Shown: positions 38,677 to 63,296 of the stretch, piece by piece | Layout of the letters: every line of letters starts with the position of its first letter | Position numbering within the stretch: the stretch's first letter is position 1 | DNA from: Acidobacteriota bacterium | GTDB lineage: Bacteria > Acidobacteriota > UBA6911 > RPQK01 > JAJDTT01 | Assembly: GCA_965209055.1 (NCBI GenBank) | Contig: OZ242374.1 | Span: 5,984,001-6,048,000 of the forward strand | DNA: 64,000 bases | Reading direction: 5' to 3' | Program-made: the position numbers and the translations under genes | The notes under the pieces: generated by a model | Told to the model about the DNA's origin: nothing | The model's input: the letters and a program-made list of their open reading frames with translations, nothing else | The model's database searches: none

Positions 38677-38767
38677 GGGAGCGGCGGCTCTCCAGCCGCC
38701 GCAACAGGAGCGAGGGTGGTTCACCCCCGCGTCCGGGGTCCGAAGGGGACTAACAGTCCCTCCTCCA
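38677..38767. repeat. REP-like cluster containing an intact copy of the island target hairpin
   Basis: GGAGCGGCGGCTCTCCAGCCGCCG, plus GGGGACTAACAGTCCC (38745-38760), which contains the reverse complement of the att core GGGACTGTTAGTCC. Confidence 0.7.
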
Positions 38768-40865: not shown

Positions 40866-40929
40866 GCCGGCGAAGAAAACCGAATGGAATTGTTATGGAA
40901 GGACTTGCTGCCCCGGAGGAGACCTCAAC

Positions 40930-42844: not shown

Positions 42845-42851
42845 TGGAGGG

Positions 42852-42865
42852 GGGACTGTTAGTCC
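42852..42865 (+). repeat. attL core GGGACTGTTAGTCC
   Basis: Identical to 63283-63296. Confidence 0.88.
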
Positions 42866-42893
42866 GGCGCTCTGCCCAACTGAGATACGGGAT
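42855..42893 (-). other. Degenerate tRNA-like 5' half in island left arm (not a complete tRNA)
   Basis: Minus strand ATCCCG-TA-TCTC-AGTTGGGCA-GAGC-G-CCGGA-CTAACAG-T: D-arm plus 5' anticodon stem and 7-nt loop spacing; no T-arm nearby. Confidence 0.6.
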
Positions 42894-42932
42894 TTATCCT
42901 TTATTTTCAATAGTTTAGACCGATTCTCCCCT

Positions 42933-44027
42933 CTAATTGTTCCTCCTATTTCCTGCCCGTTGCCTGTTTGTTTCCGGTTGCGTTTGTGAGTCTTCGTTAG
43001 CCTGTGCCTCCCGAATGCTGGCCAGCGCGTGGGAACTGACGTACCCGGCGTAGCGCATCGTCGTGCTGATGGCCGAGTGCCCCATCAGCTTCTGCACCGT
43101 CCTCACGTCCACCCCCTGCATCAGCCAATGGCTGCACCGGAATCGTCTCAGGTCGTGAAATCCGACCTTCAACCCCACTCGCTCGGCGGCTCGACGTAGC
43201 GGCTTGTCCGGATTCACCCATCTCGTCCCTGTCCGGATGTTGACGAAGACGTAAGGGGTGTTCAGGTAGCGAACCAGCCGGACCAGATATCCGGTGGCGT
43301 ACTTCGACAGCGGAATCTCCCTCGGCTCGTCGTTCTTGGTGAATTCCACCCATAGCAGCCTCCGGGTTAGGTCCACCCGATTCCAGGTGAGCGACAACGC
43401 TTCGCCTTTCCGTATCCCCGTCTCGCCGATCACCGCAATCATGGCTTGCAGGTAAGGATTGTCCACCGCCTCGACCAGGTCGCGGAACTGTTGAACCGTC
43501 AAAGGCCGGAAGACCTTCTTGGGTTCTTTGAGTTTGGGGAACCTCACCAGCGGGTGCGTGTCCACTTCCCCGCACTCCAGCGCGTAGGAAAACAGCTTGC
43601 TGATGGCGGCAATGTCGCGGTTCACCGTGGCCGGTTGCACCTGCTTCTTCCTCTGGGCGACGTAGCGGTACAGGTCCTTGCGTTGGAACTCCTTCAGGGG
43701 AATGTTCCCCAGCATGGCGTTGAGACTCTTGAACGAGAGCGCATAGCGACGCCGGGAGCGCATGCGAGGTTTGCAGTACTCCTCGAAGAAACGCTCGTAG
43801 AAGCTCCGGACCGTCCAGATCTTGCGGTTCCCGCCGACAAGCTCCTCCTTGAGCTGCTTCCAGGTGCCATCCAGGATGCTCGACTCGATTCGTGTTTGAA
43901 GCGCCTGTGCGCTCCGGTAGTTGGGGGCGTACATTCGAAGCCGACCGGATCCGTTCGGCCAGTACTTGCTGACGACGAAACGTCGTCTCCCCCGGCGATC
44001 CTTCACCTTGTAGATGCCCATATGCAT
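42933..44027 (-). CDS. Tyrosine recombinase / phage-type integrase
   Basis: ATVNRD, ETGIRKGEA (R), TKN (K), FHDLRR (HxxR), LMGHS, TTMRY (Y); RBS AAAGGAGG (start 44027 or 44021). Confidence 0.95.
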   Translation of the reverse strand: MHMGIYKVKDRRGRRRFVVSKYWPNGSGRLRMYAPNYRSAQALQTRIESSILDGTWKQLKEELVGGNRKIWTVRSFYERFFEEYCKPRMRSRRRYALSFKSLNAMLGNIPLKEFQRKDLYRYVAQRKKQVQPATVNRDIAAISKLFSYALECGEVDTHPLVRFPKLKEPKKVFRPLTVQQFRDLVEAVDNPYLQAMIAVIGETGIRKGEALSLTWNRVDLTRRLLWVEFTKNDEPREIPLSKYATGYLVRLVRYLNTPYVFVNIRTGTRWVNPDKPLRRAAERVGLKVGFHDLRRFRCSHWLMQGVDVRTVQKLMGHSAISTTMRYAGYVSSHALASIREAQANEDSQTQPETNRQRAGNRRNN

Positions 44028-44341
44028 CTCCTCCTTTCTGGATCCGGGTTCTTCGCCGTGAGGAGAATCCTACCACGGCTCCAAGAGAATCAGCATAGGC
44101 GTTCAAGTCTTCCAAGGCGAAGACGCGGTGGCCGGCGGGGTCAATCTGGACCGTGGACCGGTTGCAGCCCGTGTGTTAGGGGTGACCTGTCCCTGGTAGC
44201 TTGAAATCCCTGGAACTTGGAAAATCCATCTGCCATCATGAGAGCCTAATGGGCTGTCACGGTGATGGAAACAAAGCAGTGACTGCGGCCGCAATCCCAT
44301 TGGATCTTCCATAGAAGGCGGCTTTTGGGTGTGGAGGAAAA

Positions 44342-44710
44342 ATGCGCCTGAATTGGATCAAATGTGTGGAAGACAAGTGGTGCCCGTTTCTTACAGTGAA
44401 TCTTGATCATCCTCACTTTGACGGTCTCGGTGGCGTCTACGTCATCTGGCACGGAGGTAATGGCTGGCACGGAGGCAGCGACCCGTGGACGGTTTACGTG
44501 GGGAGTGGACATATTTCCGCTCGTCTCGCGGAACATCGAACGAACCCAAACCTTCTCAAGTATTCCGACCGAGGGCTCTTTGTTACTTGGGCAATGGTCG
44601 CCCCGGAAAGTCAGAGGGGTGTAGAGGCGTATCTGGGTGATGAACTGGGCCCGCTGGAGTCCATTCGTCTTCCTGACGCTACTCCTATTCCTGTCAATCT
44701 TCCGTGGTAG
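44342..44710 (+). CDS. Small GIY-YIG-like nuclease
   Basis: GGAGGA RBS; GVYVIW...VYVGSG..I..RL..H...VE pattern. Confidence 0.7.
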   Translation: MRLNWIKCVEDKWCPFLTVNLDHPHFDGLGGVYVIWHGGNGWHGGSDPWTVYVGSGHISARLAEHRTNPNLLKYSDRGLFVTWAMVAPESQRGVEAYLGDELGPLESIRLPDATPIPVNLPW

Positions 44711-44720
44711 ACCGTTTCGC

Positions 44721-45059
44721 ATGGGACCTGGACAAGACCCCAAGGTAGTTACTCACCCAGCTCCAACAATAGTAATCTACCAAGTCACCGATGAAACGCT
44801 CCAAAGAATTGAAGAAGGAGTCTCCCAAGCGGGACCTAGTTCAACACTTGCAGGAACGACCTTGACCATCTTCGTAGCTCTCTGCATCGCAATTGCCACC
44901 ACGAGTCCTTCACCTTTTTGGCGAACACTTTTCATCATCGGCATATCTATTTCGGGCATCCTTTGCGTTGTGGGGTTTTCGCAATGGAGGCGTAGTCGCA
45001 AGACTGTTCATCAAGTCATTGAAAGAATCCGGGAACGAAAAGACGACCCCAACGCTTGA
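44721..45059 (+). CDS. Hypothetical 2-TM membrane protein
   Basis: Starts 10 bp after the GIY-YIG stop; two hydrophobic helices then basic WRRSRK..IERIRER tail. Confidence 0.7.
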   Translation: MGPGQDPKVVTHPAPTIVIYQVTDETLQRIEEGVSQAGPSSTLAGTTLTIFVALCIAIATTSPSPFWRTLFIIGISISGILCVVGFSQWRRSRKTVHQVIERIRERKDDPNA

Positions 45060-45580
45060 TGGAGACTCATGGTCGTTGTTCTTTCCCAGATTGGAGCGAT
45101 TGTTATTTGGGTCCTCTTGTTGAAGTCCTGAACCAAGCACCCCCTCCACCTCTGATTCCGCTGGCCCTGCTTGGTCCCAGCCACATCCATCTAACCCTGA
45201 AGTGTACCCCAGTGATGGAGGCGGGTCTGTCCGAATTGCTCCCGGTTTCAAATCAGGACACTACGCTTTTCTGCAACCTGCAAGGCGCGTAGCGCGCGGA
45301 CCGGCACCATTGTCGCCGGGTCCCATTCGGGATAGAGTCTGCAATGATGACCGTGCTTCCGGCCTGCTGCCCCGCTCCGGTCGCTCCATTCTTTTCGCGG
45401 GACGGCAGCCGAACCGGAACATTTTGATCCCGGTTGACAATGAAACAGAACGTATGCGTTTTGCCCTCGCGATGGTGTGCGTGCTGACACTGTTGAGTTA
45501 CCCACGCCGGGAGAACCGAGGAAGACGACCTTGTTCCCTGAAGGCTGTAGAATCCGACAACACCTGTCCTGAAGGAAAGC

Positions 45581-46423
45581 ATGCCGCATACTGTTTGTGA
45601 CCTCCGCTCTTGGGAGGAGTTAGAGGAGGAACTGAAAAAACTCCAGGAGCACTCGCTTGAACAGCGCCACTCAGCACCCCTGACGTTTCTGTATCGTGGG
45701 CAGGAAAACTCTTGCTGGCCCGTAAAGACAACGCTTGAACGATGGGCGGAGGGGCGAGAGGTTTCGTTCCGGCGATACTATGAGTTCATTTACCGAGTAA
45801 AGCCAGAGCTTGAGAGCTTCACCGAAGAGCGTTGGGATATCCCGGACCCCCAAGAGGTAGAACGCCTGACAAAACGTCGCGAGCCTTTTTCTTGCGATAC
45901 GGCGAAAGCCTTCAAAACTTGGGGGCTAGTTGGGAGCTACATGGTGCACTTGCGCCACCATGGGTTTCCCTCACCTTTCCTCGATTGGACTCGTTCACCC
46001 TATGTTGCGTCCTTTTTTGCTTTCCGGCAACCGATCAGGGATGCGAAAAAGGTGTCTCTTATCGTTTATCGAGAAATGCGAAATCCATCCGAGCATCCCA
46101 AGGTCTACTCTAGTGACTGGCCGGAAATATACATCCTGCCAAAGCTATACTCACCAACGCACCGAAGGCACTTCCTTCAGCAGGCGGAGTACACATTTTG
46201 CGTACAAAATAAGAAGAGCAAATGGCACTTTGGGCCACATGAGAGTGCACTCGGGCGGGGCGATTCCAATGTAGACGTCATTTGGAAGTTCAATCTCCCC
46301 GTAACCGAACGCCTGAAGGTTTTGAAGTTACTTGACAGGTCTAACATGAATGCGTTCTCGCTGTTTCAGTCTGAGGAAAGCCTAATGGAGACTGTGGCGT
46401 TTCGAGAACTGGATTGGCTGTAG
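45581..46423 (+). CDS. FRG domain protein
   Basis: FLYRGQ..W..KTTLER, LRHHGFPSPFLDWTRSPYVASFFA, R..QQA.Y, L...NMNAFSLF. Confidence 0.85.
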   Translation: MPHTVCDLRSWEELEEELKKLQEHSLEQRHSAPLTFLYRGQENSCWPVKTTLERWAEGREVSFRRYYEFIYRVKPELESFTEERWDIPDPQEVERLTKRREPFSCDTAKAFKTWGLVGSYMVHLRHHGFPSPFLDWTRSPYVASFFAFRQPIRDAKKVSLIVYREMRNPSEHPKVYSSDWPEIYILPKLYSPTHRRHFLQQAEYTFCVQNKKSKWHFGPHESALGRGDSNVDVIWKFNLPVTERLKVLKLLDRSNMNAFSLFQSEESLMETVAFRELDWL

Positions 46424-46695
46424 TTTCCATGGAAGCGTGGCGCTCACGGGGCCAGGGACAAGGATCAGCATCGAGCCACACGGAAACACGGGTCAGAAGA
46501 ATTTCACCCGGGATGTTGGCAAGTCCCCATTCGGTTCTGCCAAGTCGACACAGTGCCCTATTGGCACAAGTGCGAGTACTTGAGACACCGACCAGTTTGG
46601 GTGGACACGGACTGCCAAGACAATCCTCCAACAGAATGGCGACGCTTAGAGCTAAGTCGTACGAGGACTGGATTTTGGCATGCACGGTCGGATGG

Positions 46696-46862
46696 TGAAA
46701 GGCAATGAGATCGGGGAAAGCGGATTTGTGAATCACCGGGACCGCCATTTGTGAATCCACCCTGCGTGTCCCATTCACACTCCCGGATCGGCACGAGACC
46801 CCCTTTGCGCCCTGCCGAAACGAGTCCTCGTCAGCCTTTATGCCGGCCAAGTGGCAGTCGCC
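46696..46862 (+). repeat. ~165-bp direct repeat, copy 1
   Basis: ATTTGTGAATCACCGGGACCGC..TTTGTGAATCCACCC..TGTCCCATTCACA..TCCCGGATCGG..GAGACCC..CTGCCGAAAC..TCAGCCTTT..GCCAAGTG, aligns with 57162-57330. Confidence 0.85.
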
Positions 46863-47163
46863 GTCGAGATCGAGCCGAAGGGCGATCCGCGAGTTGAAGG
46901 GTTGCTCCGGCGTCTTCATGTCCCGAACGGTGAAGACGGATCCACCGGCAGGTCAACTGGTAGGAAGAATTCGACCTTCCAAGGCATTCCAAGGAAGCCC
47001 AGAAGCCGTCGCGCCTGCTGACACCGCCGCCTGCGGCGTGTCGAATCCCCCCGGCGGGATTCCCGTGAAGTCTGGTAGAGGGTTCGGGAGGATCGGAGAT
47101 TGAGGGCGGCGGAGTTGCGCACGGACCCCGTCGGCTCACCATCCGGGCAGCCCCGACGAGGGC

Positions 47164-47955
47164 TTACGGGACCGTCTGGGACCTTCCCCATCCCTCGTCA
47201 GCAAGACGGGTGCAGTTTAGCTCCTCGACACGGAGACGCCACTGGGGCATCACCCGGTCCAAGATCTCCCGGAATCGGTCGTTGTGCGTGGGTTCGACGA
47301 GGTGGGCCATCTCGTGCACGACGACGTACTCGATGCAGGAAAGCGGCTTCTTGGCCAGTTCGGAGTTGAGCCAGATGCGGCGGGCCGGAGCGTTGCAGGT
47401 TCCCCAGCGTGTCTTCATGCGCCGGATGCGCCAGTCGGCCACCCGCACCCCGATCCTCGGCTCCCACTTGGCGGTCCACGCCGGGATACGCTCGCGGAGC
47501 CGAGCCCGGTACCATGCGTACAGCATCGCCTCGCGGGAATCGCGACCGGTAGGAGGACGGACCCGCATTTCGATCCAGGCGTTGCCCCTCACCCGCACGC
47601 CGGTCGGGCCGGGCGATTCGATCACGTCCAGCCGGTAGCGCCGGCCCTCGAAGTAGTGACTCTCGCCGGACACGAACTCGCGGCGGGACTGGCGCTCCTG
47701 CTTCAGGAACCCGTCGCGTTTTCGCCGAATCCAGGCCAGCCGCGATATCACCGCCAACCGCACGGCCTCGTCGTCGAGGCGCAACGGGGCGGCAACGCGC
47801 ACCCGTCCCTCCGGGGGGTAGACGCCCAAGTGCAGGTGCTTGATGTCCTTGCGGACGACCTCGACGGAGATGCCACCGACCTCAATGTGCGCGGATAGAA
47901 CCGATCTCCGGGAACTGGCGGGGCGGGAGGTCGGCCCGTGAAAATCAGTATTCAT
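47164..47955 (-). CDS. M48/YgjP-like zinc metalloprotease-domain protein (type I R-M associated)
   Basis: MKTRWGTCN, IWLNSEL, YVVVHEMAHL..HNDRF; overlaps hsdR stop. Confidence 0.88.
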   Translation of the reverse strand: MNTDFHGPTSRPASSRRSVLSAHIEVGGISVEVVRKDIKHLHLGVYPPEGRVRVAAPLRLDDEAVRLAVISRLAWIRRKRDGFLKQERQSRREFVSGESHYFEGRRYRLDVIESPGPTGVRVRGNAWIEMRVRPPTGRDSREAMLYAWYRARLRERIPAWTAKWEPRIGVRVADWRIRRMKTRWGTCNAPARRIWLNSELAKKPLSCIEYVVVHEMAHLVEPTHNDRFREILDRVMPQWRLRVEELNCTRLADEGWGRSQTVP

Positions 47956-50900
47956 TCCGTGCCTTCACGATGTCGAAGGTCGCGGCCGCGTTGGCCCCGT
48001 AGGCACCAAGCGCCTCGTGGATCGCCTTCCGGATGAGCGTCTCCTTGATCGGGTGGCCGCGCCACCCGTCCATCCGAGCCTTCCGAACCGCCTGATCGAC
48101 GGCCAGCGCGACGGACTCGCGTGTGCCGGTCCCAGGTTCAGTTATCGTCATCGGCGGCTCTTCCGGGAGGTTGTCGTAGATCGCGCGCAAGGCTGCGGTG
48201 TCGATGTTCGCTGGACGCGACCCGCCGTCCTCGCCGCACTTCACCTTCGCGGCCAGCGCGCTCACCCGCTTCAGGTAGTCTCCGTACGCGATCACCTCCT
48301 CGCGCCGTTGCCGGATCAACTCGTCGAGCAGCCTGGACATCCGTTCGTAGTACTTCGGGTTGACGGACATCTCATCCACGATCAGGCGCCGGACGTTGTT
48401 CTCGATGGTTTCCGCGACGGCGCGGCGGTTCCCCCGGATCCCGTCGGGCAGCGAGTCTACGGCGTCCCCGGCGCGTTCGACAAGGAGATCGACGAGCGTC
48501 ATGTCGTCGAAGGTGGAAAGAACCCCGGAGTCGTCGGCCCGGATGTAGGCGTCCAGAAGATGCCGCATCGCGGGCTCGAACATTTTCAGGTCCACGAAGT
48601 CGCCGCTGTTCAGTTTGACCTCTTGACGGACCTTCTCGTAGTGGTCCACTTCGTCCCGCGTGTCCCTCCGTTGGGCCTCCGTGTAGCCCGCCGCGATCAT
48701 CTCGTTGGCCAGGTCCGCGTAGCTGCGGAGGAACGCGGCGACGAGCCGGTAGAGGGTGAGGCGCTTGCGTTCGTTCGCGGCCAGTTGGCGAGCCGCCTCC
48801 TCACCGTCGCCCGTGCCGTCCTGGCAGAAGTAGCGCAGGTACGCTGCGGTATCGCGGGGCGGGTCGACCCCTTCGCAGAGCGCCCGAACCGCTTCGCGGG
48901 CCTCTTCCAGCCGCTCCCGCCCCCGTTCCAGGCGATCCGTCAACAGCTCTTCTACATCCTCGCGGCTGTAGCCCTCGAAGGCTTCGCCCGTGTAGTCCTG
49001 GATCGCGCCCTCCAGCGAGCGGAAGAGGTCCCTGTAGTCGATGATGTGGCCGTACTCCTTGTCCTCGCCATCGAGGCGGTTGACCCGGCAGATCGCCTGA
49101 AACAGAGCATGGTCCTGCATCTTCTTGTCGATGTAGAGGTACGTCGCGGGCGGGGCGTCGAACCCGGTCAGCAGCTTGTCCACGACGATCATGAGCTTCA
49201 TTTGCGCTGGGTCATTCACGAACCGTCGCTTGACCTCCTGCTCGAACTCATCGGCCTTGTGCATGGCCGTGTCCTCGGACTCTCCGAAGTGGTCTGCGAG
49301 CATGCGCCGGTAGACCTCGTACTTGAGCAGTTTCTCGGCCGGACCCTCCCCGGGGTCCTCGCCCGCGATGTCGCTGGCAGCCGGCTGGTATGACGTGATG
49401 ATCGCGCACCTGCCCTTCAGGTCGGTCGCACTGAAGCGCTGAAAGAAGCGGCAAGCTGCGTAGATGCTGTCGGACACGAGCATGGCGTTGCCCCGCCCGC
49501 TTTTCAGCCGGTCGCGCGTTTCCATGTCCATGAGGATGTCGTCCACGATCTTGTCGATCCGTTCGCGCGAACTCGTGACCTTCCGCATCGTGCCCCAGCG
49601 CTGGCGGAGCTGCGCCTTGGCAAGGTCGCTGAGCCCCTGGGTCTTGAGGTCGAACCACTGGTCGATCTTCGCCTCGGAGGTCAGGTGCTGGTCGATGTCG
49701 CGCGCCTCGTAACGCAGGTCGAGTACCACCTTGTCGCGGATCGCCTCGTCGTACTTGTAGGTGTGGATATACGGGCCGAAGGTCTCGATGCTGCGCGGCT
49801 TGTCGGACTTGAGCAGCGGCGTTCCCGTGAAGCCGATCAGGGTGGCCTCGGGCAGGAGTTTCTTCATCGCGCCGTGGAGTTTACCGGACTGTGTGCGGTG
49901 GCATTCGTCCACGAAGACATAGATGTCTCCGGCGGGGCGAAAGCCGCCGGAGATGTGGGCGCGAAGGTCGCTCACATAGCGGTCGATGTCGCCCTCTTCC
50001 GAACGGCCGAACTTGTGGACGAGCGAACAGATCAGCGACTTGGCGGGATCGCGAAGGGCCTCGGCAAGGTCCGCACCGCTCTTCGTGCGGTGGATGTCCT
50101 CGTCCACGCCAAGAAAGACCTTCTCGATCTGCTCGTCGAGTTCCTTGCGGTCGGTGATGACGAGCACGCGGCCATCGGTAACCTTCTCGCGGATCCACTT
50201 CGCGAGCCACACCATCGTGAGGCTCTTCCCGCTGCCCTGGGTGTGCCAGATGATCCCCCCATCCCGTCGCTTCACATGGGATTGCGCTGCCTTCACGCCG
50301 AAATACTGGTTGTGACGGCAGATCTTCTTGGTGCCCGCGTCAAACACCACGAAGTCGTGGACCAGTTCGAGGAGACGGCCCGGTGCACAGAGGTCGGCGA
50401 GTTCTTGGAGAAGGGACGAAGCGGCGTTCGACGCGGGTGAAGACGCGGCAGCCTCCTTCCAGCGCAGCCAGTACTTTTCCGGTGTGCCGACCACGCCGTA
50501 GCGGAGCCCCTGCGTGTCGTTGCCCGCCATCACCAACTGCACGGTGGTAAAGAAATGCGGGATGAAGTGCTTCTTCTGGTTGGCCAGGTTCTGGCGGATC
50601 CCCTCGGCCACCGACACGGTCGAGCGCTTGAGTTCGATGACCCCCAGCGCGATGCCGTTCACGTAGAGGACGAGATCGGGCCGCTTGGTGTTCCGGCCGC
50701 TGACCGTGACCTCTTCGGCGATGGCGAAGTCGTTGGCGAACGGATTGCTCCAGTCGATCAGATCGACGGTAACTGCCTTCCTGCCGACTCCGGGACTCAC
50801 CTTCACGCCGTACCGGAGGAGGCCGTAAACGTTCCGGTTAGCTTCGTAGAGCGTGCGGCTTCCGCCCAGTGCGGCGGCTTGCTCGAGCTTCGCAATGGCC

Positions 50901-51082
50901 TTCGCGATCAGACTCGCGGGATGGCCGCCGCGCTTGAGAAAACGGGTGAGGATCCGGGACTCCACGTTGCAGTTGCCGTCCCGGTCCTGCCAGTCGCCAA
51001 GGTAACGGTAGCCGAGACTGTCCCGGAAGAGCGCGATGACCCGCCGTTGCGTTTTGATCTCCTTTTCGCCGACGGGGGTCAT
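47945..51082 (-). CDS. hsdR: Type I restriction enzyme R subunit
   Basis: RPDLVLYVNGIALGVIELK, WHTQGSGKS, DECHR, GFTGTP, VVDKLLTGFD, QAICRVNR; ATGA overlap start 51082. Confidence 0.95.
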   Translation of the reverse strand: MTPVGEKEIKTQRRVIALFRDSLGYRYLGDWQDRDGNCNVESRILTRFLKRGGHPASLIAKAIAKLEQAAALGGSRTLYEANRNVYGLLRYGVKVSPGVGRKAVTVDLIDWSNPFANDFAIAEEVTVSGRNTKRPDLVLYVNGIALGVIELKRSTVSVAEGIRQNLANQKKHFIPHFFTTVQLVMAGNDTQGLRYGVVGTPEKYWLRWKEAAASSPASNAASSLLQELADLCAPGRLLELVHDFVVFDAGTKKICRHNQYFGVKAAQSHVKRRDGGIIWHTQGSGKSLTMVWLAKWIREKVTDGRVLVITDRKELDEQIEKVFLGVDEDIHRTKSGADLAEALRDPAKSLICSLVHKFGRSEEGDIDRYVSDLRAHISGGFRPAGDIYVFVDECHRTQSGKLHGAMKKLLPEATLIGFTGTPLLKSDKPRSIETFGPYIHTYKYDEAIRDKVVLDLRYEARDIDQHLTSEAKIDQWFDLKTQGLSDLAKAQLRQRWGTMRKVTSSRERIDKIVDDILMDMETRDRLKSGRGNAMLVSDSIYAACRFFQRFSATDLKGRCAIITSYQPAASDIAGEDPGEGPAEKLLKYEVYRRMLADHFGESEDTAMHKADEFEQEVKRRFVNDPAQMKLMIVVDKLLTGFDAPPATYLYIDKKMQDHALFQAICRVNRLDGEDKEYGHIIDYRDLFRSLEGAIQDYTGEAFEGYSREDVEELLTDRLERGRERLEEAREAVRALCEGVDPPRDTAAYLRYFCQDGTGDGEEAARQLAANERKRLTLYRLVAAFLRSYADLANEMIAAGYTEAQRRDTRDEVDHYEKVRQEVKLNSGDFVDLKMFEPAMRHLLDAYIRADDSGVLSTFDDMTLVDLLVERAGDAVDSLPDGIRGNRRAVAETIENNVRRLIVDEMSVNPKYYERMSRLLDELIRQRREEVIAYGDYLKRVSALAAKVKCGEDGGSRPANIDTAALRAIYDNLPEEPPMTITEPGTGTRESVALAVDQAVRKARMDGWRGHPIKETLIRKAIHEALGAYGANAAATFDIVKARNEY

Positions 51083-52650
51083 GGCTTGGTTGATTCGGAT
51101 TCGAGGATTTCCCAGCGCCCCTTCTTGGTCGGTCCCACATGACGGATGCGACCCGCCTTCCGGAGCTTGTCGAGATGGTATTTGACGCCTTCCGGCGTGA
51201 TCCCGATTCGGGAGGCCAGGGCGACGCGCGTCAATGTCGGATCCCTTCGCAGGAGAGCGAGAATGCGGTCGCGGGTAGGCATCGAATCTGGCTTGCGGCC
51301 TTCTTGGGCAGCTTCGCCGGTTTCCTGGGTAGTCTCGGCGAGTTGCTGGGTAGTCTCGCGGCCTTCTTGGGTAGTCCCTCGCTTGGCGCCTTGGGTTTCT
51401 TGGGTGGCCGCGCGAACGGAGCCAAGCTGCTTGCCATTGCCGCCCGCCCGCAAGATTCGGGTGATAAACCCCGCGCCCGCCTCGAACTCGGGCTCCGGCA
51501 GGCCCGCCTCTGCGCAACGCCGGATCATGTCCACCGTCCCGGTTCCCATCTTCTCGATGTAGCGGAGCAGGTACATTGACTCCGCGATCAGCGGATTGGC
51601 GGGCAGCGACTGGTGCGCCACGCGCAGTTTCTCCACCGTAAGCGGCGGCGGCAAGCGGCCGGAGTTCATGACCTCCAGCCGGTCGGCGAAGAGCATTACC
51701 TGAACACTGCTGTTGTCGGTGTAGTCCCGGTGCGCCACCGCGTTGACGATGGCCTCCGTCACGACCTCCTTCGGGATCTCGTAGGCCACAGGGGCTTGGA
51801 CCGTCTCCGCCCTCGTCCCAACGGTCAGAGCGATCTTGCTCAACACGAAGTCCACCGCTTGATCCACAAGCTCGAAGACCGTGCCCTTGTACACCTGGTG
51901 GGAAGGGATCGGCTTGGCGACCTCGGTTCCGTGGAAGTGCGCGCACTTGACCTCGGAAGAGATCAGGAAGCGTTGCGGGGTGCTGCCGAACAGCAGCACG
52001 GCGGCGTTCGTGAGCCGTCCCCGGTTCAGCAGGTTCAGGTGCCTGAGCAGGTCCGCTGGCGGAGTCCCCTCCGGCAGTGGGAACTGCCGCGATCTTCGCG
52101 CCTCGCGGATGAAGCGGTACATGCCCTCGACGTTCAGGTCGTCAAGTGTGGCTCCCGAGCAGCCGGACGCGTCGAACGGCCCGAAGCGCAACATTTGCCT
52201 CGCTTCCAAGTACTGGACGAGAGCGGCGTACAGGCCTGCCACCAACTCGGCCCGGGTAGCGAAACGCCTTCTCACCAGACCAGCTTGCGCCCTGCCGATC
52301 AGTGCCCACATCTTCGGGTGCCGCTCGGCTCCCTCGGAGCCCTTCAGAAAGATCAGCCGGTGCTTCTCCAGATCGGTGGCCCGGTCGAACTCGCGCTCGG
52401 TGGGCGAGATTCCGTTCCCGTCCTCGAACCCGTAGTCTGTACCGAATAGGCCAACGTAGATCTCGCACCGCTCGACTTCGCTCAGATAGACCTCGTCGGG
52501 TCTCCGGTCAGAAGCCGAGACGTCCTCGAATAGGAAGACTTCAAAGAAACGCCGCATCATCGGATCGCCGCGCAGGTAATCACGCAAATGCTCCCGCTCC
52601 CGTGCGAACTCGTACTGGACACTGCTGATGAAGATCCGGATCGGCGTCAT
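51079..52650 (-). CDS. DUF4062 + RecG-C/HATPase-like + HTH protein inserted between hsdS and hsdR
   Basis: RIFISSVQ.EF..ER, YVGLFG..YG, SPTEREF; EAIVNAVAHRDY, DRLEV.NSG, IEKMGTG; C-terminal winged HTH. Confidence 0.85.
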   Translation of the reverse strand: MTPIRIFISSVQYEFAREREHLRDYLRGDPMMRRFFEVFLFEDVSASDRRPDEVYLSEVERCEIYVGLFGTDYGFEDGNGISPTEREFDRATDLEKHRLIFLKGSEGAERHPKMWALIGRAQAGLVRRRFATRAELVAGLYAALVQYLEARQMLRFGPFDASGCSGATLDDLNVEGMYRFIREARRSRQFPLPEGTPPADLLRHLNLLNRGRLTNAAVLLFGSTPQRFLISSEVKCAHFHGTEVAKPIPSHQVYKGTVFELVDQAVDFVLSKIALTVGTRAETVQAPVAYEIPKEVVTEAIVNAVAHRDYTDNSSVQVMLFADRLEVMNSGRLPPPLTVEKLRVAHQSLPANPLIAESMYLLRYIEKMGTGTVDMIRRCAEAGLPEPEFEAGAGFITRILRAGGNGKQLGSVRAATQETQGAKRGTTQEGRETTQQLAETTQETGEAAQEGRKPDSMPTRDRILALLRRDPTLTRVALASRIGITPEGVKYHLDKLRKAGRIRHVGPTKKGRWEILESESTKP

Positions 52651-53945
52651 TGGCACGGTCCGTTTTCGTAGACAGCATCCTGGATCGGAAGTCGAATCGA
52701 ACCGGTAAGAAGCTGCTGCATCATGCCCTGCTTGAGGGCGCGCGTCTTGTCGCGACGCCGGTCTAGCGCGGCGATCTCCGCGTCCATGTCTGAGAGGGCG
52801 GCGGCGATAGCCCGCTGCTCTTGGGGGGGCGGGAATCGAAGCTCCGCAGAGGCGATATGGGCGCGGTTGGTGGCGTACACTTTCGTGCCGGCCGCGAGCC
52901 TCCGGAGATGATCCCGGAATCGGGGGAAAAACTGCAAGTACGCCTTGAAGCCGTCGGCGAGCACCGCCTTATTGAACCTCACCGCGATGGTGTGCAGTCC
53001 GGATACGAGTTGGTGACCCTCGCTCCCCATGATCTCGATGGACTTTCCCACACCTCCAACGTCCTCGGAAGCGTCAACGAACACGAGGTCTCCGTCGCTC
53101 AACCGATCAAGCCTTCTAGCATAATCCTTCGCCAAGGCCGGCAAAGCGGTGGCCGTCGGGTCAAGGTACACACGGGCGGATGTATGGATGTCTCCATAAT
53201 GGAGGTACTTCACTCCACCGCCGACTTCGCCGTTAGGCGCGAGGTAAGAGCGTGGGAAGCTACCATGCCGAAGGAATCGGAGATGGTTCCCCAGCCGCCT
53301 CGTCTCCCACTCACCTCGGAACCCCGGCAGCCGGGTCCTGCCGGTCAGAAGTTGCTGCATCGCCGCCTGCTTGATTGCCCGCTTCTTGGCGATCAGCGCC
53401 TCCAGCGACCCGATCAGGGCGTCTACGTCCATGAGGACGGCGGCGATGGCCCGTTGCTCGTGGAGGGGTGGGAGGGGGATAACATGCTGATGAACGTCAT
53501 TTCGATTCAGCGTTGGAACCCCGGAACCGGCGAGAAACCGAGCAACGCGGATATGGGTGTACAGGTAATAGATGAATCGCGGATCGTTGCGACGATAGGA
53601 TACAACCCAGAGAGCCGTGTTGTGTGGCCAATAGTCCTCCGCCACGAAGTGTACCTTGCCGATTGTTCCAGATCGTCCCGTCACCACACCTGGGCCCTTC
53701 ACCATAGCGCGGTTGTGGCGTCGCAAAATTCCGTTGGAATAGACAACGGGGTAACGTCCTGATCGGACTTGCGATGTAGGGAGATCGAATCCTCGCTGTA
53801 AGGGAGCAACATCACGGAGCGCCTTCGAGGCCCAGCCCGCCGGAAAGACGACCGCCTCGGAGCTTTGGCACCGTACGGCTTCGACCGGCGCATCCGCCGC
53901 ACGGTTCGAGGCAATGGCTATGCTGCGCCCCCGTCCTTCACTCAC
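52647..53945 (-). CDS. hsdS: Type I R-M specificity subunit
   Basis: Two TRDs with conserved PPLHEQRAIA...KQAAMQQLLTG and PPPQEQRAIA...KQGMMQQLLTG. Confidence 0.93.
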   Translation of the reverse strand: MSEGRGRSIAIASNRAADAPVEAVRCQSSEAVVFPAGWASKALRDVAPLQRGFDLPTSQVRSGRYPVVYSNGILRRHNRAMVKGPGVVTGRSGTIGKVHFVAEDYWPHNTALWVVSYRRNDPRFIYYLYTHIRVARFLAGSGVPTLNRNDVHQHVIPLPPLHEQRAIAAVLMDVDALIGSLEALIAKKRAIKQAAMQQLLTGRTRLPGFRGEWETRRLGNHLRFLRHGSFPRSYLAPNGEVGGGVKYLHYGDIHTSARVYLDPTATALPALAKDYARRLDRLSDGDLVFVDASEDVGGVGKSIEIMGSEGHQLVSGLHTIAVRFNKAVLADGFKAYLQFFPRFRDHLRRLAAGTKVYATNRAHIASAELRFPPPQEQRAIAAALSDMDAEIAALDRRRDKTRALKQGMMQQLLTGSIRLPIQDAVYENGPCQ

Positions 53946-54035
53946 TGCCGACCCACCTACACACGGATTCTGCAGACGCTGTCTGCGGAATCTCGCCGAA
54001 CGGTGCGTCTCGACGCTCGAACCGGAGCGGACGGC

Positions 54036-56482
54036 TCATGTCGAGAGCCCCATTCGCCTAAGGTGACCCTCGACCATGGTGCCGTAGTCGTCAACCTGAC
54101 GCACGAGCTCCGGCAGCGCCTCGGAATACCGCGCTTCAAGCACCGTGATCCGTTCCACGAGCCCGTTCGTCAGGCGGTCCACCTGCCGGCCGATCCCGTC
54201 CTCCAAGCTGGCCATCCACTTGCCGCGCACCACCATGTTGGCGACCTCTGATGGAGTCAGAGCCACGTATCGCACTAGTATTTCCGCATCAAGCAAGGCT
54301 TGCGCATCCTTCGCTGCTTTCTTCGCCTTGGCTTCCGCCTTCATGAGATCCAGGCAGACCTCCAACGCGTCGCGCTCGTCGGGATTCCCGGAGCCACCGC
54401 GAATCTCCTTGAGCCGAGCCCTTACGGCCGTCTGCGTCACCTTCCCGGTGTCCGTCGTGGCACCGTGCAGCAGCCCGTCCTGCCCGTGTTCTCTTCTACA
54501 AACGCCTCCACCTCGCGCCCGATCTTCTCCTGCTCGCCCAGCAGGGCCTCCACCTCGCGCTGCTCGTCCGCGAAGTAGCGGCCGGCCACAAGATCGGGTG
54601 GAAGCAGGTCCATCTTGTACTTCGTGCGCCTGACCGTCAGGTCGGGAGACTCACCCGCTTGCCGTTTCCCGACCAGCACTCGCGGCCGCGCCGCCTCCGA
54701 CCAACCGCCGGTCACCACTAGGTACAGGTCGTCCTGCATGACCTCGTCCCAGTAGTCCATCAGACATTGGTAGACATCGTAGGGGTCGATGAGTGGAAGA
54801 TCGGCGAAACGTCCCAGTAGATCCTCGGATAGCTTCCCTATCAATGCCCTCGGGGATTCGCCCTCTCCGAGTCCGTATAAACGGGACTCATGCTCACGCC
54901 ACCAATCGTCGAAAGCGCTCCACACTCGCTCCCGGTACGCCGTGAATTCATCATGTCCGAGAACAACTACTCTGACCTCGTCCGGAGACCTGCACGCTTC
55001 GCTGTATCCCGGACGGCCACCCGGCACGAACAACGCCCGCCGCAAGCCGGGTAACACCTTCCAATAGCGGTCGAGAGCGTCGATGTCGGGGTCAGGGATC
55101 CCTCCATGGAGGTGCGCGCCGAGGTCGTGAAGATCCTCCGGCTCGCCGGAGTCGATGTAACGGGGGATGTTAAGGTTGTAGTCGTTTGCCTCGCTGGCGA
55201 TCTCGTCGAGTGGCACCATCCGCGCGTAGCCGGGCGTGTCGCGCTGGTCGTTGAAGACATCGACGATGCGGTGAATGTCGCGCTCGCGGAGACGGTTCTT
55301 GGCGCCGTCCTTACGAAAGCCCCCGCTGGCATCCACCATGAAGATGCCCTTGCGGGTGGCCGCGTCCTCCTTGTCGATCACAACGATGCACGCCGGGATA
55401 CCGGTGCCGTAGAAGAGGTTGGCGGGCAACCCGATGACACCCCGGATAAGTCCGCGCCTGACGAGATTGCGGCGGATGCGAGCCTCGCGGTTGCCGCGGA
55501 AGAGTACCCCGTGCGGGAGGATGATCGCACCCTTGCCCGTGCTCTTGAGCGATGCAACGAGGTGAAGGAGGAAGGCGTAGTCGCCATTTTTCGCGGGCGG
55601 GATGCCGTACTCGAATCGGCGGAATTCGTCGTGGTCCGGATCGAGACCGTTCGACCACGCCTTCGTGGAAAACGGAGGATTGGCGACGGCGAAATCGAAT
55701 CGCTTCAGGCGTCCGGGGCCGTCGGTGAATCGCGGTGCGGCCAGTGTGTTGTCGCGCTTGATCTCGGCTGCCACGTTACCGTGGAGGATCATGTTCATGC
55801 AGGCCATGGTCCACGTCGCGACATCCATCTCCTGACCGTAGATCGTCAGCCCGTTCGGTGCTTCGTCCGCCGCCTTAATGAGGAGTGACCCGGAGCCACA
55901 GGTGGGGTCATAGACGGCGCGGTCGAGGCCGGTGTCCGCGTCGATCCCGACCACCCGGGCCATGATGCGTGAGACCTCGGCAGGGGTGTAAAACTGCCCC
56001 TTGCTTTTGCCGGACTGCGTCGCAAAGTGCCGCATGAGGTACTCGTATGCGTCGCCAAGGAGGTCGTCGCCCTGGGCGCGATTCGCCTGGAAGTCGAGCC
56101 GCTCGAAGATCCCGACCAGCTTCGTGAGCCGGTCTGTCATCTCCCGGCCCCTGCCGAGCTTGCTCTCGTCGTTGAAGTCCGCTTGGTCGATCACGCCCTT
56201 GAGGAGGAAGTCGTTGGTGTCGGCGAGCTTCCGAATAACGACGTTGATGCCGTCGCCGATTTCCTTGCTCCCCTTGAGTGCCACCATGTCCGCGAATCCG
56301 CCCCCGGGCGGCACCTTGATCTCGGAATACTCGTCGTCTGCGCCCGAGTACTTGTCCGAGACGTACTTCATGAACAGCAGCGTCAGGACGTAATCCTTGT
56401 ACTGCGAGGCGTCCATGCCGCCACGGAGCTGGTCGCAGCTCTGCCAGAGCGAGGCGTGCAGTTGGGACTTGCGCAGGGCCAT
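54036..56482 (-). pseudogene. hsdM: Type I R-M methyltransferase, frameshifted near 54482
   Basis: LRGGMDASQYKDY, GQFYTP, YDPTCGSG, ANPPF, YNLNIPRY. Frame breaks after EENTG; adding one base continues DGLLHGATTDTGKVTQ into ORF 54036-54440. Confidence 0.88.
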
Positions 56483-57007
56483 GGTCGGCTCAACTTCCTG
56501 GCGCGGGCGGGCGCCGTGCGGGCACTGGACCACAACCTTCGAGCCGGCACAGGGATCGGAGGAAACGAGTCGCCCCGCCCCGGTCGGAGAACGGCGCCCC
56601 GCCGGGCCGGATCAGACGCTGGGACGTGTCTCCCCCGAGGACGTCGCGTAACAGGTCGGCCACTGCCCGACGGGAATTCGGAACCTCGGTCTTGGCCATG
56701 CCTCAATTTAGCATGTCGGGCCGGGCCAGTCCGGTGCGGCTTCCGTGTCGGGATCGGAGCAGGGCGTCAGACGCCGGCTGCGGCGATGACAAGCTGCACC
56801 CGCTTCTTCGTGGGCACGAACAGCACTGCCAGCAGTCCCAGCCCGATCAGTGCGTATTGAACGCGGACCGCCGAAGCGAGCACCGCCAGGCAGGCAGACC
56901 ACCACGCCGTCCAGGCATCTTGCGCGGACTGATGCGCCATCAAGGCGAGCACTGCCAGCAGCAGTGCCCAGGAATCTTCGCAGGAGCCTTCCCGCCAGGG
57001 ATATTTT

Positions 57008-57106
57008 GGACGGGAGCGACCCCACCAGGGAGTGTTGCGCAGATGTGAATTGCGCAACACCCCCGCGCCCGCACCGGGCAGCAAAAAGGGGGGGTCGCTC
57101 CCGTCC
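57008..57106. other. Nested inverted-repeat structure
   Basis: 16-bp perfect IR GGACGGGAGCGACCCC (57008-57023) / GGGGTCGCTCCCGTCC (57091-57106) enclosing GTGTTGCGCA-9nt-TGCGCAACAC (57032-57060). Confidence 0.8.
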
Positions 57107-57161
57107 ACCTCCATTTTCCCCGTGCGGCCACCCGGTGGCCGGAAATGGGGCCGCAACTGAC

Positions 57162-57330
57162 TGAAAGGAAACAAGCTCGGGGAGAGTGCATTTGTGAATC
57201 ACCGGGACCGCTTTTTGTGAATCCACCCCCCTTGTCCCATTCACATCCCGGATCGGGCGCGAGACCCTCTTTTCGCACTGCCGAAACAGCCCTCAATCAG
57301 CCTTTGCGACTGCCAAGTGCGTTCACCGCC
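57162..57330 (+). repeat. ~165-bp direct repeat, copy 2
   Basis: Aligns with 46696-46862. Confidence 0.85.
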
Positions 57331-57949
57331 AATCACGACCTGGAAGGAGTAACTTTCCGCCGTTGTTTGCCGCTCGACCGACTGCTTAAGTGCGGCCGTA
57401 ACCCGGCCGTAGGAGTTGAGCAGGCCTTGGTCGGTCGAGTGCCCCGGATCGACACGGACGAAGACGGTCCGGTCCGCATCGACGGCAAGCGGCGGCTTGA
57501 GCGCGAAGTCACGTAGGGTCTTCCCCACCGCCCCCGGCACACGCGCCGAGGAAGCCGTTGCCAGTGGACAGCGAGTGTGTCAGGGTTCGAGCGTTGCCCT
57601 GCGGTGCTGGCCAAAGATCGACACGGCCTTAAGAGTTTCAAGAAGATTCGGCATGGCCGGAAGCTAACACCGAAAGCTGACAATCGGGTCTTGTTCCCGG
57701 AGGGCCAGACGACGACGGCCCGCGCGGGTTTCTTCCCTTGCCCCCCCTTCGGTCCCTACGGTTCAGCCCGGATCGGGCAGGGGTCCCCATGGGGTCATGC
57801 GGCGTTGACAAGACAGGTCATGAGGAGGGCCAGAAGGATCAGCGCACTTGCGAGCTTGAGAGCGGTGGACCAATCGTTGAAGGGCCGACGGGGGCAATAG
57901 GTGCAGACCGTTTCATTTGGGGATTATATACGAAAGTTCCAGATTCCCC

Positions 57950-57978
57950 TTGACACACTTGGAACTTTCCTGTAATAT
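57950..57978 (+). promoter_or_regulatory. Putative sigma-70 promoter of transposase
   Basis: TTGACA-17 bp-TAATAT, then AAGGAG RBS. The spacer contains GGAACTTTC, an inverted copy of the TIR motif GAAAGTTCC. Confidence 0.6.
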
Positions 57979-58001
57979 CTCCTTGTAAGTAAGGAGATCG
58001 T

Positions 58002-58976
58002 ATGGCTTTCAAGGCACCCGGAAAACATTTCAGAGAAGGTCTTTCAGTCAAGCAGTTCTTCCGTCTCTTCCCGGATGACAAGGCTGCCGAGGCATGGTTC
58101 GCCAAGGAACGCTGGCCGGAAGAGGTCTGCTGCCCCTACTGCGGATCGGTCAAGGTCAACACCAAGACCAATCACAAGTCCATGCCCTACCGGTGCAAAG
58201 AGACGAAGTGCCGCAAGTGGTTTTCGGTCAAGACGGGAACGCCGATGCAGTCCTCGAAGCTGGGCTATCAGGACTGGCTCTATGTCCTGTACTGCATGGC
58301 GACGAATCTGAAATCGGTGTCCTCCATGAAGATGCACCGAGACCTGGAGATCACACAGAAGTCGGCCTGGTTCGCCATGCACCGCGCCCGCCACGTCTGG
58401 AACACGGACCCCGAGGAGCGGTTTGAGGGGCCGACAGAGGCCGACACCACGCACATCGGCGGCAAGCGAAAGAACAAGCCGTTGAAGGTTCGGGCCAAGC
58501 TGGAAGGCCGGGGAGCCGTGGATATGACCACGGTGGTCGGCATCAAAGACCGCAAGACCAATCAGGTCCGGGCGAAGGTCGTGCCGGACGAGAAGGGAAT
58601 CACGCTCCGGGGTTTCGTCTACGATCACACCGAACCGGAGGCGAAGGTCTACACTGACGACGCATCCGCCTACGAGCGGCTGCCGAATCATGATTCCGTG
58701 AATCACTCCCGGCTGGAATACGTCAAGGGTGAAGTCCACACCAACGGGATCGAGTCATTCTGGTCCATGCTCAAACGCTCCCATACCGGGACGTTCCACA
58801 AGCTCTCCCCGAAGCACTTGGACCGGTATGTCGGAGAGTTCTATGGCCGGCACAATATGCGCGGCAAGGGCACTCTGTCTCAACTGGCGGAGATGGCTGA
58901 CCGGCTGATCGGGCAGAGACTCCGATACAGCGACTTGACCGCCGATAACGGGCTCCCCTCCGGCGCCAGAAGCTAA
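58002..58976 (+). CDS. IS1595 family transposase
   Basis: Zn ribbon CPYC...C...C, FSVKTGT, TQKSAW..HR, EADTTHIGG, VYTD, HTNGIESFWSMLKR, HLDRYV.EF..RHN. Confidence 0.95.
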   Translation: MAFKAPGKHFREGLSVKQFFRLFPDDKAAEAWFAKERWPEEVCCPYCGSVKVNTKTNHKSMPYRCKETKCRKWFSVKTGTPMQSSKLGYQDWLYVLYCMATNLKSVSSMKMHRDLEITQKSAWFAMHRARHVWNTDPEERFEGPTEADTTHIGGKRKNKPLKVRAKLEGRGAVDMTTVVGIKDRKTNQVRAKVVPDEKGITLRGFVYDHTEPEAKVYTDDASAYERLPNHDSVNHSRLEYVKGEVHTNGIESFWSMLKRSHTGTFHKLSPKHLDRYVGEFYGRHNMRGKGTLSQLAEMADRLIGQRLRYSDLTADNGLPSGARS

Positions 58977-59057
58977 CTGAGGAAAAGCTGTGGGAAGGTC
59001 GTTGGGAAACCTGTTAAGTTCTTGTGTATCAACTGTTTACGGACGATTTTTGTTGAC

Positions 59058-59951
59058 ATGCCAAGTCTAGCAACCTACCCTGACGCCGTGTTAACGGAGT
59101 TCCCGGTCTCTCGACTTCCTGCCGTCAATGTCGCGCAGGTTCCTCAGCGTAGCCCGTTGAGGTATCCCGGGGGGAAAACGTGGCTGATCCCGCACATTCG
59201 GGAATGGCTCAAATCCGCAAGCGCGGAGATTCTGATTGAGCCCTTTGCCGGAGGCGGAATTGTCTCCCTGACAGCCGTGATGGAGGAACTGGTCGAACAA
59301 GCCGTGATGGTCGAGATTGACCATGATGTCGCGGCGTTCTGGCACGCGGCCCTGAGAAACGGACGCCGGATGGCGGATCAGATCCAAGAGTTCAATCCCA
59401 CCAGAGAGACGCTTATCGAGTGGGAAACTAGCCGCCCGCAGTGCGTCAATGAGCATGGCTTCCAGACCCTGGTATTCAACCGCACTCGACGCGGCGGGAT
59501 CCTCGCTTCGGGAGCGTCCTACATGAAGCAGGGAGAGAACGGGCGGGGAATACTGTCTCGCTGGTATCCCAAGACACTGGCCCGGAGACTGGCCGAGATC
59601 GAACGCCACGCAAGCAAGATCATCTTTTGCGAGGGGGATGGCCTCAAGCTACTCCCGCCTCTATTGCAGGGATGGGGAGATCGGGCCGCCGTGTTTCTCG
59701 ATCCTCCGTACACGGCTGGCGGGAAACGGGCGGGACGGCGCCTCTACACGGATCACCAAGTGGACCACGCCGAACTATTTTCCATACTGGCATCGTCCGA
59801 CGCCGACTTCCTGATGACCTATGATCTATCACCCGAAATCGTGGAGCTGGTCGAGCAACACGGGTTTCACGCCGTCGCCGTGGTGATGAAGAACACCCAT
59901 CACAACCGCATGGCGGAAATCATCATCACTCGGGAAAGCCTCTTCGAATGA
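59058..59951 (+). CDS. Dam-like (alpha class) amino DNA methyltransferase (start uncertain)
   Basis: SPLRYPGGK, EPFAGGG (motif I), FLDPPY (motif IV), LMTYD. Confidence 0.9.
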   Translation: MPSLATYPDAVLTEFPVSRLPAVNVAQVPQRSPLRYPGGKTWLIPHIREWLKSASAEILIEPFAGGGIVSLTAVMEELVEQAVMVEIDHDVAAFWHAALRNGRRMADQIQEFNPTRETLIEWETSRPQCVNEHGFQTLVFNRTRRGGILASGASYMKQGENGRGILSRWYPKTLARRLAEIERHASKIIFCEGDGLKLLPPLLQGWGDRAAVFLDPPYTAGGKRAGRRLYTDHQVDHAELFSILASSDADFLMTYDLSPEIVELVEQHGFHAVAVVMKNTHHNRMAEIIITRESLFE

Positions 59952-60799: not shown

Positions 60800-61005
60800 C
60801 CAAGCGAAAGAAGCCGAAGATCAAAGACGGGCGGACCATCGAACTGGTGAAGCACACCTACCAGCCGAACAAGGCCGAACTGGAGGAGGAGTTCAGCGTA
60901 GACGTTCCCGGTGCGACGGCCCTGGAGAAGTTCAAGCGGCTCACCCGTGCGATGGTGCAGCCGGTCAACGCTCGGCTGATCTCGAAACCGAGGAACCGGC
61001 GTTGA
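60796..61005 (+). CDS. Small basic hypothetical protein, IS passenger
   Basis: 69 aa, ATGA-coupled, ends 3 bp before right TIR; YQPNKAELEEE. Confidence 0.65.
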   Translation: MTKRKKPKIKDGRTIELVKHTYQPNKAELEEEFSVDVPGATALEKFKRLTRAMVQPVNARLISKPRNRR

Positions 61006-61954: not shown

Positions 61955-61967
61955 GAGGGCGTTCCCC

Positions 61968-63282: not shown

Positions 63283-63296
63283 GGGACTGTTAGTCC
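63283..63296 (+). repeat. attR core GGGACTGTTAGTCC
   Basis: Identical to 42852-42865. Confidence 0.88.

Follow-up and report, generated by a model that had tools for sequence, protein, structure and literature searches.

A probable tRNA-Arg 5' remnant in the attachment site of a multicopy, hairpin-targeting integrase island of an Acidobacteriota bacterium

Introduction

The anticodon loop is reportedly, in the work of Williams 2002, one of the sublocations used by tRNA-targeting tyrosine integrases. The island family described here resembles ordinary tRNA islands in that a tyrosine integrase gene adjoins attP and the crossover appears to fall in a 7-nt anticodon loop flanked by a symmetric stem; ordinary tRNA islands carry and restore the 3' part of the gene, whereas the present family carries a 5' part. 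Hairpins of the REP type are targeted by IS1397, ISKpn1 and IS110-family elements, which are insertion sequences with DDE or DEDD transposases and no cargo, and to our knowledge the known REP-targeting elements all use transposases. The present family shares with them the use of repeated extragenic palindromes as safe multi-copy landing sites; unlike them, it relies on a tyrosine integrase and on conservative site-specific recombination to move islands of 2.5-25 kb. Among the matches listed in a literature search on tyrosine recombinases and REP sequences, no paper contained the REP term, and we found no published integrase family that abandoned a tRNA for REP-like hairpins and multiplied.

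A bacterial integrative element that recombines with the 5' part of a tRNA gene was reportedly described by Zhao & Williams 2002 (J Bacteriol 184:859). As in such 5'-tRNA elements, a relative of our island in genome G003 carries a tRNA 5' segment, and the native upstream flank is separated from the rebuilt gene (41-nt repeat); unlike them, the island studied here lies outside any tRNA gene, keeps only a decayed 5' segment and targets a repeated hairpin. Recombination at the 5'-distal part of tRNA genes is called "considerably less frequent" than at the 3' part (PMC6563490), and Zhao & Williams 2002 is cited both there and in PMC1635311. The account of pTN3 of Thermococcus nautili (Cossu et al. 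2017, PMC5495485) states that attP and attB share 41 bp in the tRNA 5' half, that the minimal site of the integrase is tRNA-Leu 2-44 and that this enzyme catalyses inversions as well; the rearranged 5' fragments in two genomes analysed below (G031 and G033) may be a parallel case. According to the same paper (PMC5495485), pTN3 is archaeal, has an SSV-type integrase that is split by integration and uses a single tRNA target; a switch to repeated hairpins or a multicopy spread is not described in it. The two precedents (PMC6563490 and PMC5495485) therefore place the ancestral 5'-restoring mode of the present family among a known, rare kind. What appears to be new is the move to hairpins, together with the multiplication to 26 copies.

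Results

The island is inserted in the loop of a REP-like hairpin

We analysed a 64-kb stretch of DNA (64,000 nt, hereafter the window), whose relevant features are listed in Table 1. The left neighbour of the island is a plus-strand peptidase S15/PepX_C gene, and the target GGGGGGACT-GTT-AGTCCCCCC is situated just past this gene. Joining the two outer flanks of the island gave a rebuilt attB that aligns over 813 nt with 85.7% identity to an uninterrupted locus in the sister genome G001. The palindromic hairpin after the peptidase stop is intact in G001 (GGAGGGGGGCCCGTTCGTCCCCCC) and in a second sister genome, G008 (GGAGGGGGCCTGTTAGTCCCC), and a 16,060-nt contig from an independent metagenome (run X8) tracks the left flank to exactly position 42865 and then diverges. 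Taken together with the direct repeats, the intact hairpins and the break in the X8 contig identify attB as a REP-like hairpin, into whose loop the island was cleanly inserted. The locus has the recombinase gene at one end, the direct repeats and the empty-site comparison that characterise a tyrosine-integrase island. Its cargo includes an FRG-domain gene, a YgjP-like gene, a type I restriction-modification system, an IS1595 transposase and a D12 methylase with a NotI-like endonuclease. To the left of the island lies an unoccupied hairpin of the same type, possibly a further attachment site. The peptidase gene itself is split over the overlapping frames 40855-41667 and 41420-42844 (+), which points to a frameshift or an assembly error.

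The integrase gene reads outward, toward the left island end. Invariant columns in an 18-sequence alignment of the family include R206, K231, H291, R294, H317 and Y326, which we take to be the tyrosine recombinase catalytic set, and the window integrase is predicted to be active. The spacer behind its stop codon is kept across the integrase family in both tRNA orientations. The motif CCGGGTTCTTCGCC in the 5' leader is a candidate protein-binding site. Repeats resembling CAGGCAACAAACAGGCA were observed at 42940-42990, in the C-terminal coding region of the integrase, and at 63150-63175, in the P' arm, and may be binding sites of the arm type.

Table 1. Position of the island and of the sequence features discussed in the text (window coordinates)
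Feature	Position	Strand	Remarks
Unoccupied hairpin of the same type (GGGGACTAACAGTCCC)	38742..38765	.	Possible further attachment site
Whole integrative island	42852..63296	.	20,431 bp (20.4 kb) between exact direct repeats
Left copy of 14-bp direct repeat GGGACTGTTAGTCC (plus strand)	42852..42865	.	Exact repeat; predicted crossover core
tRNA-like piece	42894..42853	minus	42 nt laid out as tRNA-Arg positions 1-41
Probable relic of tRNA-Arg positions 1-29	42866..42894	minus	P arm of attachment site; alignment to tRNA-Arg
Spacer, integrase stop to tRNA relic (...TAAACTATTGAAAATAAAGGAT...)	42895..42932	minus	26/37 identical to G003
Tyrosine integrase, 364 aa	42933..44027	minus	Pfam PF00589 at 2.8e-26, plus PF24624 and PF02899
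Motif CCGGGTTCTTCGCC in integrase 5' leader	44044..44057	plus	Opposite in orientation to the P' arm copy
P' arm	63130..63282	minus	GGCGAAGAACCCGG at 63219-63232 plus a CAGGCAACAAACAGGCA repeat
Right copy of 14-bp direct repeat	63283..63296	.	Followed by right half of host hairpin and host flank

A tRNA-Arg-like fragment lies between the integrase gene and the left crossover site

The first-pass annotation, made from the sequence alone, had described a fossil tRNA 5' half on the minus strand at 42893..42855. This piece lies between the stop codons of the peptidase and integrase genes and next to the left crossover site of the island. Re-reading the sequence reproduced this minus-strand reading exactly and confirmed the tRNA spacing, the AAC triplet at the anticodon position and the D-stem mismatch, which is T10:C25 in the window copy. 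ARAGORN was silent on attP and attB rebuilt from the window flanks, and therefore the statement that no T-arm is present on either side holds. ARAGORN called no tRNA gene in the 64-kb window, and Rfam reported nothing at the gathering score for the window and nothing at E<=10 for positions 42700-43000. The fragment has neither the complete cloverleaf nor the paired D-stem of a tRNA gene (RF00005). The annotation would have fallen only if a covariance-model signal and related elements with a tRNA 5' fragment were both lacking; the signal is indeed absent, whereas such relatives exist (see below).

We aligned an 81-nt query region with the 68 tRNAs of the genome, a comparison that had been proposed with the original reading. 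The best local alignment was to tRNA-Arg(TCG), with a score of 42 and 27/31 matching bases. Shuffled sequences had a mean score of 18.9 (SD 2.3, maximum 31) and never reached this value in 500 trials, and neither did any of 499 random pieces of the window (maximum 35). Measured against these controls, the resemblance to a tRNA is far beyond chance. A fortuitous likeness, which the silence of Rfam and ARAGORN could be taken to favour, is hence exceedingly improbable and was rejected on account of the shuffle and window controls and of homologous elements that carry a real tRNA-Arg in the same register.

The 29 nt of 42866..42894 comprise the acceptor 5' strand, positions 8-9, the D-arm, position 26 and the first anticodon-stem bases. 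The left direct repeat, read on the integrase strand, consists of GGA, the 7-nt 'anticodon loop' CTAACAG and TCCC, and spans the loop together with the final 3 bp of the "anticodon stem" and the first part of the 3' strand. Because the repeat covers these bases, this part would be the crossover core and only 42866-42894 a relic. The term fossil tRNA half fits the acceptor and D-arm part; the anticodon-arm part is probably a live crossover site, with the crossover inferred to lie within the loop, and in this respect the first description has to be amended.

Our preferred reading, to which we assign a probability of about 0.85, is that the fragment is the leftover 5' part of a tRNA-Arg gene that ancestors of the island rebuilt on insertion, and that the island family now targets hairpins. 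We regard as established the anatomy of the piece, its homology, the clean insertion, the existence of an extant 5'-supplying relative and the decay. Since the fragment lies less than 50 nt from the island edge, it might instead be chromosomal, the remains of a host tRNA-Arg gene that once resided here and was destroyed. The fragment, however, is enclosed by the direct repeats and accompanies the integrase in every readable copy irrespective of the flank, and where the site is uninterrupted, in G001, G008 and run X8, there is just the hairpin. A resident gene is refuted by these empty sites, and we consider it very unlikely.

Twenty-six related islands occupy repeated hairpins of the same genome

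A search of the 6.08-Mb genome with the integrase sequence revealed 26 full-length, stop-free matches with 90-100% identity. The DNA repeat unit extends from about 105 nt upstream of the integrase start codon to the core. The tRNA-like arm was found in 25/25 readable copies, the 26th copy reaching a contig end. The window island and its 25 paralogues are all situated in REP-like hairpins and none in a tRNA gene. On the integrase strand, the core reads CCGGA-CTAACAG-TCCCC in group A, which includes the window island, CGGGA-CTGTTAG-TCCCC in group B, which is the A core with its central triplet inverted, ACGGA-TTTCCTA-CCCCC in group C and ACGGA-TTTCCAA-TCGCC in group D.

The leader copy of CCGGGTTCTTCGCC lies 17-35 nt before the integrase start in 23/26 copies and about 1.9 kb before it in three intron-bearing copies, and an inverted copy was detected 1.45-24 kb upstream of the integrase in all 26. 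About 46 nt outside this far motif, the core recurs as an exact match of at least 10 nt in 19/26 islands; at the far end of a further four the 7-nt overlap agrees, and three were not anchored by our script. The core at the far end is invariably followed by TCCC. Island sizes in the family range from 2.5 to 25 kb. The three interrupted integrase genes (784166, 3710019 and 5306071) contain an insert of about 1.9 kb near codon 6, which ends in a group II intron domain V/VI (RF00029, 41 bits; L019 2574-2647, minus).

The islands target the most frequent perfect hairpins in the genome, which are repeated palindromes in the manner of REP sequences. GGCGATT-NNN-AATCGCC is present in 79 perfect copies (centre tcc/gga), GGCGGTT-NNN-AACCGCC in 52 and GGGACTGTTAGTCCC in 37, att junctions counted. 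Two guessed hairpin patterns for the group C target gave no match in the genome.

Three pairs of islands have identical integrases. The members of two pairs (1126233/5217760 and 4496745/6055740) differ past the island end, and one copy of the third pair (3006031/6076041) reaches a contig end. The site in the window is occupied in some genomes and empty in others (G001, G008 and run X8), and in run X1 the integrase has about 30-fold the word depth of the flank, which agrees with the copy number. The identical integrases at differing sites and the presence or absence of the island lend indirect support to recent mobility.

Relatives carry a complete tRNA-Arg behind the integrase

Starting from the 18-member family alignment we fetched 53 loci (one genome per species), ran ARAGORN on 37 of them and also read the sequences downstream of the integrase. 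Six of the 37 loci have a complete tRNA on the same strand directly behind the integrase. Five of these are tRNA-Arg, next to integrases of 72-86% identity, with anticodon TCG in L033 and L035 and TCT in L036, L037 and L040; the sixth, L043, is a tRNA-Thr(CGT) next to an integrase of 43% identity. A tRNA on the opposite strand, the ordinary convergent layout, was found in 14/37 loci (35-66% identity), no tRNA behind the integrase in 13/37 (53-92%; hairpin-type copies of sister genomes, L032 and the broken L039) and another arrangement in 4/37.

The first-pass annotation had suggested that the attP of related integrases be inspected for intact 5' halves. In L033, L035, L036, L037 and L040 the complete tRNA-Arg begins about 45 nt past the integrase stop, behind a homologous spacer (...TAAACTGTTGAAAAGAAAAGGAT), and spacer and tRNA align base for base with the spacer and relic of the window. 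Compared with the real tRNA-Arg(TCT) of G003, 23/31 of the first 31 bases are identical in the window, versus merely 5/32 beyond position 43. Alignment of the P' arms showed 117/144 identical positions with the tRNA-Arg island of G003 and 108/138 with G031, shuffled scores being far lower; judged by these alignments, each of the two attP arms of the window island has its homologue in G003.

An unoccupied tRNA-Arg(TCT) locus in G000 was used as query against the sister genomes. In G003 the native upstream flank with tRNA bases 1-41 was detected at 2022536-2024120, and the complete tRNA with the native downstream flank at 1973959-1975518, with the integrase directly upstream. The two junctions are about 47 kb apart, with the island between them. 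They share a direct repeat of 41-42 nt that corresponds to tRNA positions 1-41, and the repeat at the far end is followed by the P' arm. Since the island separates the native flank and bases 1-41 from the complete gene, it is the island that supplies the 5' half. A search for a sigma-70-like promoter ahead of the rebuilt G003 tRNA, which is a weak test, found no site. The ancestor postulated in the first description, one that restores a tRNA 5' half, thus has extant counterparts in the five relatives with a same-strand tRNA-Arg, among which the G003 element alone gives a clean 5'-supplying reconstruction. The window island has the outward-reading tRNA 5' segment in attP that is expected of a 5'-half-restoring element; a rebuilt tRNA with a displaced 5' fragment is found in G003 and not in the window, where the target is a hairpin and no tRNA is rebuilt.

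In other genomes the junctions are more complex. In G031, a displaced native 5' fragment that adjoins the P' arm aligned above does not agree with the 5' half of the gene next to the integrase at positions 26-27 and within the D-loop, and therefore the linked gene is a chimera whose 5' half derives from the element. G031 contains two displaced 5' fragments, which do not lie in a simple direct-repeat geometry with the two integrase-tRNA junctions; this layout suggests an inversion between elements. Both fragments carry a TCG loop. The two integrases of this genome (L035 and L036) are identical and adjoin a tRNA-Arg(TCG) and a tRNA-Arg(TCT) with identical 5' halves. The 5' fragments in G031 and G033 are 42-43 nt long and in rearranged positions. 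In G033 the 43%-identical integrase of L043 is followed by its same-strand tRNA-Thr(CGT) at C6:743341-743416, and an exact copy of tRNA-Thr bases 1-43 is present on the other strand about 295 kb away (C6:1038590-1038632); L043 may represent a second independent 5'-type lineage with a later inversion. A 5' fragment was not found in G032. This genome has an exact 3' fragment (bases 30-77) of the L033-linked tRNA-Arg 6.9 kb downstream (C21:314384-314431), so that a 5'-type element and an ordinary 3'-type one appear to occupy a single tRNA gene from opposite sides.

The arms of the family resemble different isoacceptors: that of the window and the native TCG gene of G031 read GAGCGCCGGA, the TCT-type genes GAGCAACGGA. 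This mixture suggests sequence exchange within the 41-nt repeat, and the arm type of sister integrase copies such as 2829232 and 4662907 disagrees with the integrase phylogeny. Both observations would suit a history in which the 5' half was captured, for example by imprecise or homologous excision from an Arg tRNA locus, without a flip of attP, the same-strand layout being secondary. The conservation of the spacer in both orientation classes fits an in-place inversion of a tRNA-derived block, and we view capture as a rather unlikely, though serious, alternative; it leaves the identity of the fragment unchanged.

Hairpin-type integrases form one clade nested among tRNA-Arg integrases

To place the window family, we computed a maximum-likelihood tree of 46 integrases by a quick search, with the root on outgroup rows that have long branches. 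The set excludes L031, L039 and L050, which have internal stops, as well as L040 and the three copies with an intron. The hairpin-type integrases, 32 in all, group together in a single clade (SH-aLRT 93). The next sequence outside this clade is L037, the integrase of G003 (99), followed by L033, L035 and L036 (99), and the opposite-strand types fall outside the whole group. This nesting, with the window island and its 25 paralogues in hairpins, bears out the target switch that had been assumed in the first description. The relic gives the direction of change independently of the tree, because a hairpin cannot give rise to a tRNA-like arm.

The acceptor and D-arm part of the relic is decaying at constant length

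Comparing the hairpin-type copies with the real tRNA of G003 showed identities of 0.52 for the acceptor strand, 0.85 for the D-arm, 0.85 for the 5' strand of the anticodon stem, 0.68 for the spacer and 0.25 beyond position 43, compared with 0.59 for the four-fold degenerate sites of the integrase gene. The real tRNA side of this comparison is frozen, and therefore the fairer comparison is among the hairpin-type copies themselves, where identity is 0.78 for the D-arm, 0.79 for four-fold sites and 0.55 for the acceptor strand. The D-stem is fully paired in 16/29 distinct arms and broken in 13/29, with almost no compensation. The 42-nt arm has no indels in 36 copies. The decay of the fragment asserted in the first-pass annotation was thereby borne out: the acceptor strand has fallen to 52% identity, the D-stem is broken in 13 of the 29 arms and the D-arm has diverged about as much as the four-fold sites.

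An arm of such constant length, with invariant or near-invariant columns at raw positions 12-14, 19-21, 23-25 and 30-32 and a D-arm closer to the real tRNA than the four-fold sites are (0.85 versus 0.59), could also be kept for a function of its own, as a protein-binding segment of the intasome or as the structured 3' end of the integrase transcript, and so be no relic at all. The latter figures overstate the constraint, however, as the real tRNA is not free to change. Among the hairpin-type copies the D-arm diverges like the four-fold sites and the acceptor strand faster than these, and the frequent breaks in the D-stem with scarce compensation speak against an RNA structure. We hold such a retained function to be unlikely. 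Under the relic reading, the acceptor and D-arm part most likely undergoes neutral sequence drift under a length constraint, as a fixed-length spacer between the core and the arm sites.

Proposed history of the island family

The following model accounts for the data. The ancestral attP would have contained tRNA-Arg positions 1-41 directly behind the integrase gene and on the same strand, and recombination would have taken place within the anticodon arm (GGA, 7-nt loop, TCC). The host 5' half would have stayed behind at the island's far end, still under its own promoter, and a complete gene rebuilt from the island 5' half and the host 3' half. The integrase would then have shifted to chromosomal hairpins of the REP-like kind, which mimic the anticodon arm with their stem-loop. 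From there at least four types of 7-nt overlap would have arisen and the number of islands grown to 26 per genome, with the acceptor and D-arm part freed from making a tRNA and the anticodon-arm part remaining the working core site. Under this model the window integrase would recombine little or not at all with the GGCGATTTCCAATCGCC hairpin.

Somewhat better than even odds can be given, in our judgement, to this scenario as a whole, namely that the lineage reversed its orientation on tRNA-Arg and then escaped the limit of one site via hairpins that mimic the anticodon arm, changes of the overlap, including an inversion, giving at least four specificities and 26 cargo-carrying islands. The data point to mimicry of the anticodon arm as a route off the tRNA gene, and suggest that the 7-nt overlap sets both the choice of target and the orientation. 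Read in this way, the family offers a rare, datable record of a site-specific integrase changing its target, in which the ancestral state (tRNA-Arg, 5' half supplied) and the derived state (hairpin) coexist in sister genomes with both attP arms alignable. It would explain the 26 similar integrase islands in one genome and bears on defence-island annotation and on assembly in uncultured Acidobacteriota. If true, a site-specific integrase behaves here as a proliferating, retargetable transposon, the decaying tRNA half is a mark of its pedigree, and the cargo-carrying islands that have accumulated include defence systems.

Other repeated features of the genome

A conserved noncoding module of about 435-550 nt was observed in most of the 26 islands and elsewhere in the genome; the cargo of a single minimal island, used as blastn query, gave 133 HSPs. 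In the window it is located at about 56986-57530 (minus reading), with a partial copy at 46696-46821. The module contains a long nested hairpin, and ARAGORN miscalls two copies as tRNA-Val. The smallest islands, of about 2.5 kb, have this module as cargo and no convincing ORF; Rfam assigned no family to the module or to the cargo of the smallest islands. It is a candidate for an island-borne structured RNA or a cis-acting site.

ARAGORN also called seven tRNA-Leu(TAA) genes in the genome (e.g. at 477237, 1381642 and 1991443), several of them near-identical. This is an unusual number, and the genes are possibly carried by another repeated element.
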